Source: an uncultured Methanosarcinales archaeon
GTDB lineage: Archaea > Nanobdellota > Nanobdellia > Woesearchaeales > GW2011-AR9
NCBI GenBank assembly: GCA_964598745.1
Contig: CAZRCV010000004.1
Coordinates: 1-60,779, forward strand
Length of the DNA stretch: 60,779 nt
Direction of reading: 5' to 3'
The notes beneath the pieces are model-generated. The model did not search any database. It was not told the DNA's origin and saw only the letters and a program-made list of their open reading frames with translations. Position numbers and translations under genes: made by a program. Shown here one piece after another: positions 16,421 through 40,834 of the stretch. How positions within the stretch are numbered: position 1 is the stretch's first letter; each line of letters begins with the position of its first letter.

Positions 16421-18184
16421 TCATCCTAGTTCATCATTTACAGTAAGGTCTTCCTTAGTTTGGTTTAACAAAATATTTTTTTGATCTTTCTTTTCCCTGA
16501 AACTTCTGGGAACGTGAATTTGTTCTGCAGTAAAGGTGTCCCTTCCGGAATAATAAGCAGCAGTAGAAGCAGTGCCAGGAGTGGGAGTAAAAATTTGCGT
16601 CAGGTTGACATAAATATCATGTTCAGCGCAGAATTCTCGCAACAGTTTCATGTCTTCCTTGGTGCAACCGGGATGAGCAGCTACAAAGTAAGGCACTAAA
16701 TTTTTGTTGGTTCCTTGTTCTTTATTGATCGTTTGGTACTCTGTCAAGAATTCTTCAAAGGCCGCGCGGGTAGACTTGTTCATTTGCTTTAAAACTGAAT
16801 CGGAGATATGTTCCGGGGCAATCTTTAAGCGGGAAACAAATTGCATAATTTTCCTAAACAATGCTTTTTGATCCAAGATGATGTCGTGGCGAATAGCGCT
16901 GCGCAATTCCAATTCTTTTCCAGAAGATGTTTGTTGCAATTTTTCAATTTCCTCTAACAGCGGATAAAGCTGGTCATGCAGCACTCGCTGTGGACAGCCA
17001 ACGCATTGTTGATTGCAATATTTTTTTTTGCTGTAAACGATTATTTCTTGATTAATAATCGGTGAAAATAATTTTTCTTCTTGATCATAGAGAGCGCAGT
17101 ATGAACCATACATATTAAGCGTAGGTAAAGTTAAGTCGTTAATTTTGTTGACTCCTTGGCCATAAAGGGCTTTGATTTCTTTAATGATACTCTGCTGGCT
17201 GCGGCGGGCTACTTCCTTTCCTTGCACTAAAGGAATGACACAAAAGTTGCAACCGCCCCAACAGCCTCGGCCTAAAACCACTGAAGTTTCTAACTTAGCC
17301 ACCATTTCTTGATTGAATTGCCAATTTTTAGAGTTAGGATGAAGTTTTCTAGTAAATTCACCTTCATATAAATAATCCATTTCATGTTCTGTAAGCAATG
17401 GTGCTAGACGATTATGTTGTATAAAGCCGCCACTGCATGGTTCAATAAAAGCGTTTTCTGGAAGCAGATAACTCATCCTGGTTAAGCGGCTAAATTGCTG
17501 TTTGTCCTTCAGGCAATCTTCATAACTCGGCAGCAGGGGAATCCTCGGATTAATTTCTTGCTTACTTATCCGAAAGGCTGCTCCATCTAGTCCAGGCAAG
17601 TTTAATTTAGCCGAGATAGAAGCAAAAGTTAGATTCGCTTGAGGCTGGTGTTGTTCAATACCCCTGATTCGTTGAAGCAAAATTAATAATGAGCGCTCAG
17701 CATTGGCAAATAATAATAAATCAGCTTTGCTATCATTAAGAATTCCCCGGCGTAATTTATTTTCTTTATAATCAAAATGAGTAAAGCGGCGAATGGTGGC
17801 TTCCACGCCGCCTAGGATAGTTATTGTCCCTTTATATAATTCTTTTATTTTTTGGCTGTAAACCAATAAAGCTCGTTCTGGAACAAGAACATTCTCTCGC
17901 TGATGCAGCATGGGAGTATAATTAGCTAGCATTGAATCTAGCAAACCGGAAGTAATACAAAAGACATATTTAGGTCGTCCACAAGCTTGGTAATCTTCCT
18001 CAGTTTGTGGTTGGGCAATGATTCCTACTTGATAACCTCGACGATCCAACAGCCGGGCTAGGATAGCCACACCGCTTAAAGGATGATCATAATATGGATC
18101 GCCGGTAACAAAAATAACATCAAACTGTTTAAAATTAGGATAATATTGTTTAGCCTCTTCTAAGGTGGTGGGAAGGAAGGCCAT
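16421..18184 (-). CDS. YgiQ-family radical SAM protein
   Basis: 587 aa with the N-terminal YgiQ signature (VIFVTGDPYYDHPLSGVAILARLL) and a radical SAM cluster (CWGGCNFC). Confidence 0.85.
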   Translation of the reverse strand: MAFLPTTLEEAKQYYPNFKQFDVIFVTGDPYYDHPLSGVAILARLLDRRGYQVGIIAQPQTEEDYQACGRPKYVFCITSGLLDSMLANYTPMLHQRENVLVPERALLVYSQKIKELYKGTITILGGVEATIRRFTHFDYKENKLRRGILNDSKADLLLFANAERSLLILLQRIRGIEQHQPQANLTFASISAKLNLPGLDGAAFRISKQEINPRIPLLPSYEDCLKDKQQFSRLTRMSYLLPENAFIEPCSGGFIQHNRLAPLLTEHEMDYLYEGEFTRKLHPNSKNWQFNQEMVAKLETSVVLGRGCWGGCNFCVIPLVQGKEVARRSQQSIIKEIKALYGQGVNKINDLTLPTLNMYGSYCALYDQEEKLFSPIINQEIIVYSKKKYCNQQCVGCPQRVLHDQLYPLLEEIEKLQQTSSGKELELRSAIRHDIILDQKALFRKIMQFVSRLKIAPEHISDSVLKQMNKSTRAAFEEFLTEYQTINKEQGTNKNLVPYFVAAHPGCTKEDMKLLREFCAEHDIYVNLTQIFTPTPGTASTAAYYSGRDTFTAEQIHVPRSFREKKDQKNILLNQTKEDLTVNDELG

Positions 18185-18201: not shown

Positions 18202-18810
18202 TTATTTTTTAAATTCCTTTAGCTGCTCCCAAACTGTTTCATAGCTATCATAATCATCTGGATTAATTCCACTAGCCGTAGCGGCTCTAGATATTACATC
18301 CTCAATAGGTTCATGAAAAGGGTTGGCCTTGCCTAAAGCCCAAACAGCAAAAGCATCACGCATCATTCTAACAATGGGGAAAGGGATTTCTCCATCAGTA
18401 TTATAAATTAAATGATCATAGTTATTAGCAAACCATGTTCTTATTTTTTTGTCTTGAGCAGAAACAGCAGCTTCTAAAGCTGATCTAATCTTTGATCTAG
18501 CTGCTAGATCATCAATTGATGCTACAGCCAGATTTGTTCTTTCAGTAAGATAATTCCGGGTATTGTCAACAGCAGTATCTAAGGAACGAGGAGTAATACA
18601 GCGCCAATTTCTGCCACTACTTTCAATATATTCTTGGTTTTCTTTTACGAGCTCTGCTACTAGTACTTGTTTAACTTGGCCATCAATAGTTAAGCTGTTA
18701 ATTCTGTTCCTAATTCTATGAAGAGATAATAATTCTAAATCGCCTGCGGTTTCATAGGATAGAACTAAATTTAACGGAAGTCCAATGGCTTGACTTAATT
18801 GTAATTCCAT
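18202..18810 (-). CDS. Hypothetical protein
   Basis: 202-aa ORF 17 nt upstream of the YgiQ gene. Helical-looking, no recognised motif. Confidence 0.5.
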   Translation of the reverse strand: MELQLSQAIGLPLNLVLSYETAGDLELLSLHRIRNRINSLTIDGQVKQVLVAELVKENQEYIESSGRNWRCITPRSLDTAVDNTRNYLTERTNLAVASIDDLAARSKIRSALEAAVSAQDKKIRTWFANNYDHLIYNTDGEIPFPIVRMMRDAFAVWALGKANPFHEPIEDVISRAATASGINPDDYDSYETVWEQLKEFKK

Positions 18811-25639: not shown

Positions 25640-25758
25640 CGCCCCCAACCAGACTTCAACTGGTGACCTTTACCGGTTATTGCTAACTTGCGGTATCAGC
25701 CTATAAGGTAACAGCTTCGTGGTAATCTCGCACGCTCTACCTGCTAAGCTATGGGGGC
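25640..25758 (-). tRNA. tRNA-Asn(GUU) with three introns (13, 14 and 19 nt)
   Basis: Hand fold. Acceptor GCCCCCA/TGGGGGC with G73, D arm GCTT/GAGC, T arm ACCAG-TTGAAGT-CTGGT. Removing 25728-25716, 25708-25695 and 25688-25670 yields anticodon arm TGCGG-CUGUUAA-CCGCA and variable loop AGGTC, a 73-nt cloverleaf. Anticodon at 25712-25710. No encoded CCA. Confidence 0.7.
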
Positions 25759-28225: not shown

Positions 28226-28261
28226 AAATTATTAAAAGAAGCGCTATTTATAGCTACATAA

Positions 28262-28450
28262 GGACCCGTAGTTCAGCCTGGATGCATCTTTCTGCAGGGA
28301 AAATAGAACGATAGCCTCCTACTCCAATGAAGAACTCCTGAGTAATTCCAATCATGGAATACCAAAGTTCACTGAGGAGATGAAAGCTATAGGTCGGGGG
28401 TTCAAAAGCTTTGGTTAAAATAAACCAGCCTGAAAGTCCTCCCGGGTCCG
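28262..28450 (+). tRNA. tRNA-Arg(CCU) with three introns (D-loop approx 18-21 nt; 37/38, 63 nt; 59/60, 30 nt)
   Basis: Hand fold. Acceptor GGACCCG/CGGGTCC with G73, D stem GTTC/GAAC, anticodon arm ATAGC-CUCCUA[28322-28384]A-GCTAT, variable AGGTC, T arm GGGGG-TTCAAA[28407-28436]T-CCTCC. The spliced T loop is the canonical TTCAAAT. D-loop intron boundaries are uncertain (starts about 28283, ends 28300-28303). Confidence 0.7.
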
Positions 28451-29644: not shown

Positions 29645-30286
29645 TCATTTATCTTCAATTTTTGAACTTCTTAAGAATTGATCCAAGGTTGACTTTACTT
29701 CTCTGAAAACGGTTTGTAGTTTTTGGTTTCCATCAATGCTAACAAAACGCTCTCCATTTGCTGTTAACGCTGCTATTGCGGTTTGGTAATTAGTTTTAAC
29801 TCTAGACAAAAGATCTTCTTGCTCAAAAACTTCTCGTGAACTGCGCGTTTGACGAATTCTTTCCATAGCTAATTTTAAATCAACCTCAAAAACCAAAGTT
29901 AAATCAGGCCGATATAACCCTTGATGTTTTTGGATCAACTCATTAATATCCATTCCCATAGCTGATTGATAAGCAATGGTAGATAACTTATGGCGGTCGC
30001 AAAGCACGATTTGGCCTTGCTGAAGTGCGGGAATGATTCTGCGGCTTAAGTGCATAACCCGATCATCATAAAATAGCTCCGCAAATTGTTCTGCAGAAAC
30101 AGGGCTGCTTTCAGTGTTGCCTTGAGCTGCTAAAACTCTAATTTTGCGGCCGATATCCATATCTGTCGGTTCTTTGGTGGCCAGAACATTATAACTTTGA
30201 GAACGAAGATAATCTGCAGCTAAGCGGAGTTGTGTAGTTTTTCCACAGCCGTCAATGCCTTCAAAAACAATAAATTTTCCGGTCAT
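29645..30286 (-). CDS. tmk: Thymidylate kinase
   Basis: P-loop FIVFEGIDGCGKTTQ, DRH motif and LID region. 213 aa. Confidence 0.85.
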   Translation of the reverse strand: MTGKFIVFEGIDGCGKTTQLRLAADYLRSQSYNVLATKEPTDMDIGRKIRVLAAQGNTESSPVSAEQFAELFYDDRVMHLSRRIIPALQQGQIVLCDRHKLSTIAYQSAMGMDINELIQKHQGLYRPDLTLVFEVDLKLAMERIRQTRSSREVFEQEDLLSRVKTNYQTAIAALTANGERFVSIDGNQKLQTVFREVKSTLDQFLRSSKIEDK

Positions 30287-30813
30287 AGTTTTAGCTTATA
30301 TTCAATATAAGTGTGTGTCCCTTCATGATGCTTAGTTCGCTTGATTTCTTGCCACGAGCTTTGATCAAATGGAGGCAATTTAGTATCTCCACCCCAGGAG
30401 CCATGCACTTTGGTTTCATAAATTTTGCTAACTAATCCAGAATTCATAGCTTCGGCATAAGGTCGCGAGCCTCCCGCAACAAAAACAGTACTAGAATCAA
30501 TACCAACGAACTCACTATTATCTAGTACTTCTATGGCTGATGGTAAAGATGGAACCACAATTACACCTGGATCATTATAGCTAGCAGTTGATGAAAGAAT
30601 TATATTTAATCTGTCTTTTAGTGGCCTAAGCTTAGGGGGAATAGACTCGTAAGTAACCCTGCCCATAATTACAGGATGGCCTATAGTAAGCTGCTTAAAT
30701 CGTGCTAAATCATCCTTAAGGCGGAAAGGCCAAGGAAAACCAACCTGGCCATTACGAGTTACACCAATGTAACCATCATCCGCTACAGCATAAATTAGAG
30801 CTAAATTTATCAT
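30283..30813 (-). CDS. folA: Dihydrofolate reductase
   Basis: 176 aa with FPWPFRLKDDLARFKQLT and VIMGRVTYESIP DHFR motifs. 4-nt overlap with tmk. Confidence 0.8.
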   Translation of the reverse strand: MINLALIYAVADDGYIGVTRNGQVGFPWPFRLKDDLARFKQLTIGHPVIMGRVTYESIPPKLRPLKDRLNIILSSTASYNDPGVIVVPSLPSAIEVLDNSEFVGIDSSTVFVAGGSRPYAEAMNSGLVSKIYETKVHGSWGGDTKLPPFDQSSWQEIKRTKHHEGTHTYIEYKLKL

Positions 30814-31678: not shown

Positions 31679-31835
31679 GGTCGAAACTATAATCTGTTCT
31701 ATAAATTAAACATCTCTTATTTCTAAATAATAGCTTTAAGCAGTACCATTTAATCTATTTAAATCGCTTTCTCTTCTGGAGAAATAGCATTGAAAGATAA
31801 AAATACATTTAAATTTGGTTCTGAGCATAAAACTA

Positions 31836-32846
31836 ATGATCATTGGCGTCACTGGCTTGTTTTGTTCAGGAAAAGATACCGTAGCTAAATTTCTGCAAGA
31901 AATGAATTTTTATCATATTTCTTTTTCTGATTTGATCAGAGATGAACTTAAAAGAAGAAAGCAGAATATTACTCGGAACTCATTAATTGAAACCGGAAAC
32001 GAACTGAGAAAAAGCCTGGGCGCGGATACTTTAGCTAAGCAGGCTTTAGCGCAAGTTAAAGATGGGGAAAATTATGTTTTTACTTCTATCCGCAATCAAG
32101 CCGAAGTGGAATTACTGCAGCACCGAACAGATTTTCTGCTTATTAAAGTAGTAGCGCCAATTAAAGCCAGGCTGCAAAGAATTATTCAAAGAAACCGGGA
32201 AGAAGATCCTAAAACATTGCAAGAATTAAAACAAAAAGAACAGCAAGAGTCTAGTTCAGAAGTTCATCAACAGCAATTGTCTCAAGTCTTAAGCCTGGCT
32301 AAAGTAACCATTAACAATAACTCTACTCCAGAGGCGCTAACGGGCAAAGTAAACCAACTAGTTAAAGATTATTTATATCTGCTGCAGGAGGCGCGCCCTA
32401 GCTGGGACAAATATTTTATGAATATCACTGAACAAGTTAAATTGCGTTCCACCTGCTTGTCGGCTAAGAAAGGGGCGATTCTCGTTCGTGACAAAATGAT
32501 CTTGTCTACCGGTTACAATGGTTCGCCGAAGAACATCCGGCATTGCAATGATGGTGGCTGCCAGCGCTGCACTTCCCGCCATTTGGGAAAAATGAAATCT
32601 GGTGTTTATCAAGAACCTTGTATTTGCTGCCATTCCGAAGAGAATGCTATAGTGCAGGCGGCTTATAGCGGTATTTCCACTCGTGGAGCTACACTTTACA
32701 CTACTTTTACTCCTTGTATTGTTTGCGCTAAAATGATTATTAATTCTGGTATTGCTCAAGTAGTATCTAAAGTGGCTTATCCTGATGATACAGCCAAAGA
32801 ATTATTAAAGCAGGCTAAAATCAAGCTGGAGGTTTTGATGAATTAA
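31836..32846 (+). CDS. Fusion protein: P-loop nucleotide kinase-like domain plus dCMP deaminase domain
   Basis: N-terminal Walker A (IIGVTGLFCSGKDT). The C-terminal half has cytidine/deoxycytidylate deaminase zinc motifs (HSEENAI and PCIVCAKMII). The ATG at 31836 is preferred over the TTG at 31815. Confidence 0.75.
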   Translation: MIIGVTGLFCSGKDTVAKFLQEMNFYHISFSDLIRDELKRRKQNITRNSLIETGNELRKSLGADTLAKQALAQVKDGENYVFTSIRNQAEVELLQHRTDFLLIKVVAPIKARLQRIIQRNREEDPKTLQELKQKEQQESSSEVHQQQLSQVLSLAKVTINNNSTPEALTGKVNQLVKDYLYLLQEARPSWDKYFMNITEQVKLRSTCLSAKKGAILVRDKMILSTGYNGSPKNIRHCNDGGCQRCTSRHLGKMKSGVYQEPCICCHSEENAIVQAAYSGISTRGATLYTTFTPCIVCAKMIINSGIAQVVSKVAYPDDTAKELLKQAKIKLEVLMN

Positions 32847-40673: not shown

Positions 40674-40834
40674 TGTGGGCGGCAGGGTTCGAACCTGCGT
40701 AGGGACTAACCCACTGGGTATCTTCCAGTCACAGCAGTAATGCTCAGCATACCCGCTGCCAGTTTGGCCTAAGCTTAGCCTAATTATTCTCCTGAACAAT
40801 TAACCAGCCCGTTTGACCACTCCGGCACGCCCAC
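40674..40834 (-). tRNA. tRNA-Leu(UAG), class II, with two introns (29 nt at 30/31; 48 nt at 37/38)
   Basis: Hand fold. Acceptor GTGGGCG/CGCCCAC with A73, D arm CCG-GAGTGGTCAAA-CGG, long variable arm TGGGTTAGTCCCTAC, T arm GCAGG-TTCGAAC-CCTGC. Removing 40803-40775 and 40767-40720 gives anticodon arm CTGGG-CUUAGGA-CCCAG, 84 nt mature. Anticodon at 40771-40769. Confidence 0.75.

Follow-up and report, generated by a model that had tools for sequence, protein, structure and literature searches.

[quoted passage not shown] Archaeal tRNA genes contain up to three introns (tRNAscan-SE 2.0 paper, PMC8450103). In the Thermoproteales, introns are found at 20/21, 53/54, 59/60, and elsewhere, and three-intron genes are documented (PMC4090602). 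For tRNA-Pro(UGG) of Pyrobaculum islandicum, introns at 25/26, 37/38, and 56/57 are given in the summary of Sugahara et al. 2007/2008 in PMC4090602. Stepwise intron removal has been followed by RT-PCR for the tRNA-Ile(UAU) of the red alga Cyanidioschyzon merolae, in which the D and T introns leave before the 37/38 intron (PMC3728597). As for the enzymes, the EndA expected in DPANN archaea is an alpha4 form with an L3 loop, an epsilon2 form, or the NEQ-type alpha-beta form, and the crenarchaeal enzyme is an (alpha-beta)2 form with a CSL loop (PMC5829648). In a survey of 2018, with a Woesearchaeota genome among those covered, the L3-loop-bearing DPANN EndAs were associated with more tRNA gene disruption (PMC5829648). 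Predicted tRNA sets in DPANN surveys are incomplete, suggesting undetected disrupted genes (PMC5829648), and have led to speculation on split genes or gene loss (PMC5829648; bioRxiv 10.64898/2026.05.13.725050). Finally, in Haloferax and other Euryarchaeota a box C/D sRNA lies inside the tRNA-Trp intron (Clouet d'Orval 2001, as cited in PMC7714728).

The gene considered here lies in a window of 60,779 nt, the whole stretch of DNA that was analysed, with 37.8% G+C. The flanking genes encode GatA, GatC, AspRS, a TFS-type transcription factor, and thymidylate kinase, the last confirmed with Pfam; the TFS gene begins 76 nt downstream, and its product has a TFIIS zinc ribbon (E 2e-17). Two other flanking ORFs were read by eye as DHFR and ThyA. 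Adjoining these two ORFs and thymidylate kinase is an ORF at 31815-32846 (+) whose product apparently joins a P-loop nucleoside/nucleotide kinase-like domain at the N terminus to a dCMP/cytidine deaminase domain at the C terminus. The closest AspRS homologs are 85-75% identical and come from groundwater metagenomes. The TFS gene points to an archaeal host, and because the best named AspRS homologs are assigned to 'Candidatus Woesearchaeota' or 'Nanoarchaeia', we take the host to be a DPANN archaeon (Woesearchaeota/Nanoarchaeia).

Reading of the sequence, together with ARAGORN after in silico splicing, identifies 28262-28450 (+), a segment of 189 nt, as a tRNA-Arg(CCU) gene interrupted three times: a D-loop insertion of 21 nt is followed by one of 63 nt at 37/38 and one of 30 nt at 59/60 (Table 1). 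A preliminary description of this segment had proposed such a gene, with insertions in the D, anticodon, and T loops that make up more than half of its length. Its account of the sequence matches the DNA, the introns account for 114 of the 189 nt (60%), and all three insertions are upheld. We regard the observation as confirmed and the earlier interpretation as supported, with the D-loop boundary refined.

The locus is laid out as GGACCCG-TA-GTTC-AGCCTGG[ATGCATCTTTCTGCAGGGAAA]ATA-GAAC-G-ATAGC-CTCCTA[63 nt]A-GCTAT-AGGTC-GGGGG-TTCAAA[30 nt]T-CCTCC-CGGGTCC-G. The exons of 20, 19, 22, and 14 nt add up to a spliced tRNA of 75 nt, with predicted junctions GCCTGG↓ATAGAAC in the D loop, CCTCCTA↓AGCTAT in the anticodon loop, and GTTCAAA↓TCCTCC in the T loop (here and below, the arrow marks a cut or a junction). 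Exon 1 is identical or nearly so among orthologs. CCA is not encoded, and a T-rich tract follows exon 4. The four exons are colinear within the 189 nt, so the gene is neither a split nor a permuted tRNA gene. The inserts are short and have no Rfam match at E<=10, unlike group I or group II self-splicing introns, whose catalytic RNA folds run to hundreds of nucleotides. With introns at 19/20, 37/38, and 59/60, each missing from some ortholog, it is a multiple-intron tRNA gene. The introns also show structural properties of archaeal BHB introns: in silico splicing restores the cloverleaf, and both predicted cuts fall in 3-nt bulges around a 4-bp helix, in a relaxed form at the anticodon.

Table 1. 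Features of the tRNA-Arg(CCU) locus, in window coordinates.
Feature	Position	Strand	Remarks
Putative archaeal promoter, TATA/BRE-like AAATTATTAAAAG	28226..28238	+	-36..-24 from the mature 5' end
Exon 1	28262..28281	+	Acceptor 5' strand, D-stem 5' strand, D loop to G19; GGACCCGTAGTTCAGCCTGG
Intron 1, 21 nt, D loop 19/20	28282..28302	+	BHB register; orthologs without the insert
Exon 2	28303..28321	+	A20-A37; ATAGAACGATAGCCTCCTA; anticodon CCT at 28318-28320
Intron 2, 63 nt, canonical 37/38	28322..28384	+	Relaxed BHB; homologous introns in orthologs
Conserved core in intron 2	28327..28375	+	Invariant columns of the intron alignment
Exon 3	28385..28406	+	A38-A59; AGCTATAGGTCGGGGGTTCAAA
Intron 3, 30 nt, T loop 59/60	28407..28436	+	Strict hBHBh'
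Exon 4	28437..28450	+	U60, T-stem 3' strand, acceptor 3' strand, discriminator G

Standard tools pass over this gene. ARAGORN in default mode returns no tRNA in the window, and with the intron option or relaxed settings it makes no call at the locus. All 4227 Rfam models are silent there, both when the whole window is searched (gathering thresholds and E<=10) and when the search is confined to a 231-nt slice with E<=10 and the laxest filters. The silence of ARAGORN and Rfam on the unspliced DNA is what hides the gene from standard tools, and a complete, conserved tRNA gene can go unseen by ARAGORN and the Rfam tRNA model because 60% of it is intron. The ARAGORN intron mode is silent on the locus as it stands, but once 21, 63, and 30 nt are removed, the remaining 75 nt are called tRNA-Arg(cct) with a normal cloverleaf. 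The call depends on how much of the D loop is taken out: removal of 18 or 19 nt makes ARAGORN distort the D stem, removal of 17 nt gives no call, and with the D insert kept, the gene is miscalled as tRNA-Pro(ggg). Low-stringency ARAGORN calls at 17470-17674 and 18410-18493 are false positives, with poor cloverleaves inside long ORFs, and a call at 30534-30715, inside ORF 30283-30813, is likely false.

For comparison, the contigs encoding the closest AspRS homologs were fetched and searched for the exons. GTDB genomes and JGI metagenomes were also scanned with a degenerate D-arm/anticodon-arm pattern, since an exact pattern with the window's own anticodon stem matched nothing in the GTDB genomes. 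Synteny around AspRS is not kept downstream, and the orthologous tRNAs were located by exon matching. Eight further distinct orthologous tRNA-Arg(CCU) genes were found on related metagenomic contigs, with differing intron subsets. The D-loop intron is absent from L001-4, L012, L019, and L020, which have a homologous 62-nt intron at 37/38 and 32 nt at 53/54 in the T arm; from L009 and L018 (63 nt at 37/38, 22 nt at 59/60); from L010 (63 nt at 37/38, 31 nt at 53/54); from L013 (62 nt at 37/38, 41 nt at 59/60); and from L011, where 102 nt at 37/38 stand alone. L014 and L015 have 14 nt in the D loop, 15 nt at 37/38, and 19 nt at 59/60; the corresponding lengths in L016 and L017 are 15, 47, and 74 nt.

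All nine distinct genes, that of the window included, splice in silico to a gap-free 75 nt. When the seven distinct spliced sequences are aligned (mean column identity 95%), none of them has a non-standard pair at any of the 21 stem pairs. Both partners change at six of these pairs, which belong to the acceptor, anticodon, and T stems, the helices interrupted by introns. In 500 shuffles the observed pairing and compensatory changes were never reached, and slid registers fall to 32-56% paired. Together this argues strongly that the tRNA is functional and that its mature form would be as predicted.

Two observations on the ortholog contigs deserve mention in their own right. L009 and L010, two contigs of different sample origin, share 99.4% identity over 5.6 kb. 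In a 360-nt tRNA region (L009:3094-3453 and L010:3893-4261), flanks, exons, and anticodon intron are identical, and the T-arm intron is 22 nt at 59/60 in the one and 31 nt at 53/54 in the other. The L010 intron at 53/54 departs from its L001-type counterpart at several positions, so the L010 allele is not a simple chimera. Further, L013 (CAYFMM010000001.1), a 385-kb contig labelled 'uncultured Methanosarcinales archaeon', has a Woesearchaeal-type anticodon intron and a 59/60 intron; the contig may be mislabelled, or this family of introns may extend beyond Woesearchaeales.

Intron 3 has the clearest motif, exactly as claimed in the preliminary description. The T stem (5 bp) serves as helix h, the central helix H pairs TTCA (28401-04) with TGAA (28431-34) in 4/4 pairs, the bulges are AA↓A (28405-07) and AG↓T (28435-37), and h' is formed by 28408-16 and 28423-30. 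Site and motif recur in five lineages: the window, L009, L013, L014, and L016. In L013 the T loop reads TTCGAAT and the intron carries CGAA, so that TTCG/CGAA replaces TTCA/TGAA, a covariation between exon and intron. Only 106 of 20000 shuffled T introns (0.5%) match the observed BHB quality.

The 63-nt anticodon-loop intron proposed earlier is also upheld. Its central helix, CTCC (28316-19) with GATG (28379-82), has only its two outer pairs standard (2/4), and the bulges are TA↓C and AA↓A, followed by h' TCC/GGA (28323-25/28376-78). Intron 2 is thus a relaxed motif in the canonical register. L001-4, L009/10, and L013 have homologous introns of 62-63 nt, the one in L011 is longer, and the weak CUCC/GAUG central helix is kept in most of the long-intron orthologs. 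Across lineages, h' reads UCC/GGA, CCC/GGG, or CUC/GAG; it is 100% paired, with two compensatory pairs. Among 20000 shuffled anticodon introns, 244 (1.2%) match the observed quality.

The exact extent of the D-loop insert had been left at 18-21 nt in the preliminary description, the 3' end falling at 28300 by a CCTG/CAGG helix (18 nt) or at 28303 by the D-loop length (21 nt). The longer insert stands and the shorter does not. The six ortholog lineages without a D-loop insert all read ...AGCCTGGA↓TAGAAC... (GGA↓TAGAAC), so the insert is 21 nt. Because bases repeat at the junction, three placements (28282-302, 28283-303, and 28284-304) give an identical product; only 28282-302 fits a BHB, with predicted cuts after 28281 and after 28302. 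Here the central helix H pairs GCCT (28276-79) with GGGA (28297-300), that is, a G.A mismatch, two C-G pairs, and one U.G. The 5' bulge is GG↓A (28280-82), the 3' bulge is AA↓A (28301-03), and the inner helix h' is TGCA/TGCA (28283-86/28293-96). Beyond the 3' bulge come an A-U pair and then the D stem; the outer helix is weak. With 3/4 central pairs and a 4-bp h', the motif has a strict-register quality matched by 55 of 20000 shuffled D introns (0.3%). The mature sequence predicted across the junction is ...GCCUGGAUAGAAC..., and the resulting 10-nt D loop AGCCUGGAUA is common to all orthologs after splicing. The homologous 14-nt D-loop intron of L014 fits only the register that gives the product GGATAGAAC; its architecture, GCCU-GGA-AUUACAU-GGGU-AAA, is the same as in the window with a shorter hairpin. 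In L016 the D-loop intron lies 2 nt further 3' than the window's and has a perfect CUGG/CCAG helix.

Folding the unspliced 189 nt to minimum free energy (MFE) preserves the four stems of the tRNA (acceptor, D, anticodon, T), from which each insert protrudes as its own helix. The fold contains the CCU/GGG pairing, the GGA bulge, and the UGCA hairpin of intron 1, as well as the T-intron motif; the folding z-score of the precursor is modest, at -1.7. One cloverleaf-like precursor can accommodate all three BHB motifs at once.

Upstream of the gene, AAATTAT(A/T)AAAA is found at the same distance in 6/7 lineages compared, L009 having diverged to AAAAATCTTAAAAAG. Apart from this motif at -36..-24, the flanks do not align among lineages. 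We infer that it is an archaeal TATA/BRE promoter.

From these elements, we propose that the locus is very probably a functional DPANN tRNA-Arg(CCU) gene whose precursor of ~190 nt contains three protein-spliced BHB introns, at 19/20, 37/38, and 59/60. Transcription would yield this precursor with its 21-, 63-, and 30-nt introns. At each junction pair, two 3-nt bulges would flank a 4-bp helix, the base being the D stem for the first intron, the anticodon stem for the second, and the T stem for the third. EndA would cut each bulge after its second nucleotide, and an RtcB-type ligase would join the four exons into the 75-nt tRNA, the introns being circularised; CCA would be added after ligation. 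Because the anticodon central helix has 2/4 pairs and the D helix a G.A mismatch with a weak outer helix, an endonuclease of broad specificity would be needed. We infer the enzyme step, since a search for EndA in the window and 181 kb of related loci gave no match, a weak test in which the only query was an M. jannaschii sequence. An RtcB gene was likewise not found in the window or the fetched loci, again in a weak test.

Other explanations of the locus have to be weighed against this proposal. The silence of the standard tools is what one would expect if the exon-like pieces were a chance resemblance or an assembly artefact and did not form one gene, but orthologs from independent assemblies and samples have the same exon order at the column identity given above, and we consider this reading extremely improbable. 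A different objection concerns the D insert alone. Only the anticodon and T-loop inserts might be spliced, with the D insert kept as an expanded D loop, or cut at 28283-28300 to leave a 13-nt loop. The latter cut would use CCTG (28277-80)/CAGG (28295-98), a perfect 4-bp helix flanked by 3-nt stretches, and the register preferred here suffers from its G.A mismatch and weak outer helix. Yet the CCTG/CAGG reading has no h or h' pairs alongside, is not chosen in the MFE fold, and is impossible in L014, whose homologous intron fits only the GCCU/GGGN register; on these grounds, the 18-nt intron was rejected. Its product, moreover, would be a 78-nt tRNA with the D stem distorted in ARAGORN, all orthologs have the 10-nt loop, and with the insert retained ARAGORN no longer recognises a tRNA-Arg. 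It is therefore most unlikely that the D insert is kept or cut at 28283-28300.

A tRNA-Arg(CCU) can be dispensable where tRNA-Arg(UCU) reads AGG, so that selection on the copy in the window is not guaranteed. The locus might then be a decaying pseudogene with a third insertion, AGG being read by tRNA-Arg(UCU) or by another copy. That the D-loop insert is missing from the closest relatives sampled (AspRS 75-85% identity) would agree with this, as would a T-run after the gene (CTTTATTAT) that is weaker than in the orthologs. Against decay, however, the cloverleaf is perfect at all 75 exon positions, the only differences from the orthologs being compensatory pairs, and the promoter motif is conserved. 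The D insert itself has a BHB motif of a quality that few shuffles attain, and the same gene has D-loop introns in two other lineages, L014 and L016. In addition, the other tRNA genes of the window are equally disrupted, so that disruption is the norm here and not a sign of decay. We give a pseudogene very little credence and retain the functional, three-intron gene as the preferred reading.

These other tRNA genes are a tRNA-Asn(GUU) at 25640-25758 (-), whose BHB inserts lie at 30/31 (13 nt), at 37/38 (14 nt), and in the variable loop (19 nt), and a tRNA-Leu(UAG) at 40674-40834 (-), whose two BHB introns lie at 30/31 (29 nt) and at 37/38 (48 nt). The ARAGORN intron mode mislabels them as Ile-GAU (25640-25758) and Ile-AAU (40674-40834); spliced by hand, they prove to be Asn(GUU) and Leu(UAG). 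All three tRNA genes of the window thus have 2-3 introns, 8 introns in 3 genes. The introns of tRNA-Asn and tRNA-Leu all show good BHB motifs, and it follows that the organism must process multi-intron precursors of this kind. The T loop of the window tRNA-Asn reads TTGAAGT, with G at position 56; relatives have TTCAAGT or TTCGAGT. The tRNA-Asn(GUU) of one relative (AspRS 82% identical) has four BHB-type inserts. It is found on the minus strand of L005, ending at ~2336, and is identical in L006, L007 (GCA_035289345.1), and L008, four independent assemblies in all. The fourth insert, 20 nt long, lies in the D loop at 15/16 and has H GCTT/GAGC (4/4, one G.U) and h' CGCG/CGCG. In L001-L020 (181 kb), ARAGORN without the intron option finds one tRNA, and no tRNA-Arg correctly, which suggests that uninterrupted tRNA genes are rare in the clade.

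Conservation is far higher in the 63-nt anticodon intron than in the other introns. Its core consists of a box-C-like AUGAAGA (28327-33), an invariant CUCCUGAGU (28335-43), a variable hairpin, and a box-D-like CUGA (28372-75); the invariant columns among the orthologous introns of L001-4, L009-11, and L013 are AUG.AGA.CUCCUGAGU ... AGU..C.GA. The core can be drawn as a K-turn (box C/D-like) adjoining h'. The pair beside its tandem GA changes from A-U to C-G in L009, a compensatory change, and one strain variant (L001/L002) breaks the tandem GA. No recognisable C'/D' boxes were found in the intron, and the C-like box and the first internal CUGA are only 4 nt apart. The only complementarity found is that of ACUCCUGA to U47-U54 of the tRNA (-11.7 kcal/mol), and the ortholog comparison gives this pairing no covariation support. 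Because C'/D' boxes and a supported target are absent, the K-turn or box C/D idea is speculative, as would be any function of the core, and a box C/D guide role was not confirmed. An alternative pairing inside the intron, CUCCUGAG/CUGAGGAG, was rejected, since L009 breaks two of its pairs. At least 120 IMG/VR viral contigs match a 15-mer of the intron, which we take as chance matches. In L011 (L011:10969-11145), a gene without D or T intron, the 102-nt intron at 37/38 shows an apparent partial internal duplication of the core (GAACGAACTCCTT... then GATGAAGAACTCCTGAG...).

It is tempting to go further and to see in this locus a snapshot of an intron-saturated, dynamic Woesearchaeales tRNA gene set, in which gain, loss, or relocation of BHB introns would happen on the time scale of populations, genes would carry more introns than the documented archaeal maximum (four in the relative's tRNA-Asn), and the K-turn module of the excised 63-nt intron would act as a small RNA or as a protein-binding platform. 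The basis for the dynamic part is the T-arm intron that sits at 59/60 or at 53/54 in 99.4%-identical contigs, together with the patchy D-loop intron. Taken as a whole, we regard this extension as possible but rather doubtful.

For the gene itself, the present work is confirmatory and extends a known phenomenon to another lineage: since archaeal tRNAs with up to three introns have already been described, the gene belongs to a documented class. The locus is a concrete case of a complete tRNA gene that escapes ARAGORN and Rfam, and it offers a way into a DPANN tRNA gene set rich in introns. Exact junctions follow from comparing orthologs that have a given intron with those that lack it, and the ortholog series is natural material for work on the substrate range of the DPANN splicing endonuclease and on the gain, loss, and relocation of BHB introns. 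The literature searched contained no description of a three-intron tRNA-Arg(CCU) in Woesearchaeota.

Several described systems resemble parts of what is found here. The tRNA-Trp intron with its sRNA (cited in PMC7714728) shares with intron 2 a long conserved intron at 37/38 and a terminal stem, the box-C-like AUGAAGA and CUGA being the counterparts here; unlike that type of sRNA, intron 2 has no recognisable C'/D' boxes or covariation-backed guide-target pairing. The nuclear tRNA-Ile(UAU) of C. merolae has the same spread of hBHBh' introns over D, 37/38, and T as the present gene (PMC3728597). That gene and its enzyme are, however, eukaryotic and nuclear, and its D intron lies in the stem, whereas the D intron predicted here lies in the loop. 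Like the present gene, the tRNA-Pro(UGG) of P. islandicum, as summarised in PMC4090602, combines one canonical BHB-type intron with two non-canonical ones in the D and T regions. The multi-intron genes of Thermoproteales also mix strict and relaxed motifs and are also unseen by standard predictors, but their hosts are hyperthermophilic crenarchaea; the host here is a mesophilic, AT-rich DPANN archaeon, and the non-canonical sites are 19/20 and 59/60. Disrupted tRNA genes of the same superphylum include the split tRNAs of Nanoarchaeum and the non-canonical introns of ARMAN. In contrast to the Nanoarchaeum tRNAs, the present gene is colinear and would be spliced in cis. With its three introns, it equals the documented archaeal maximum, in a lineage where such genes have barely been described.
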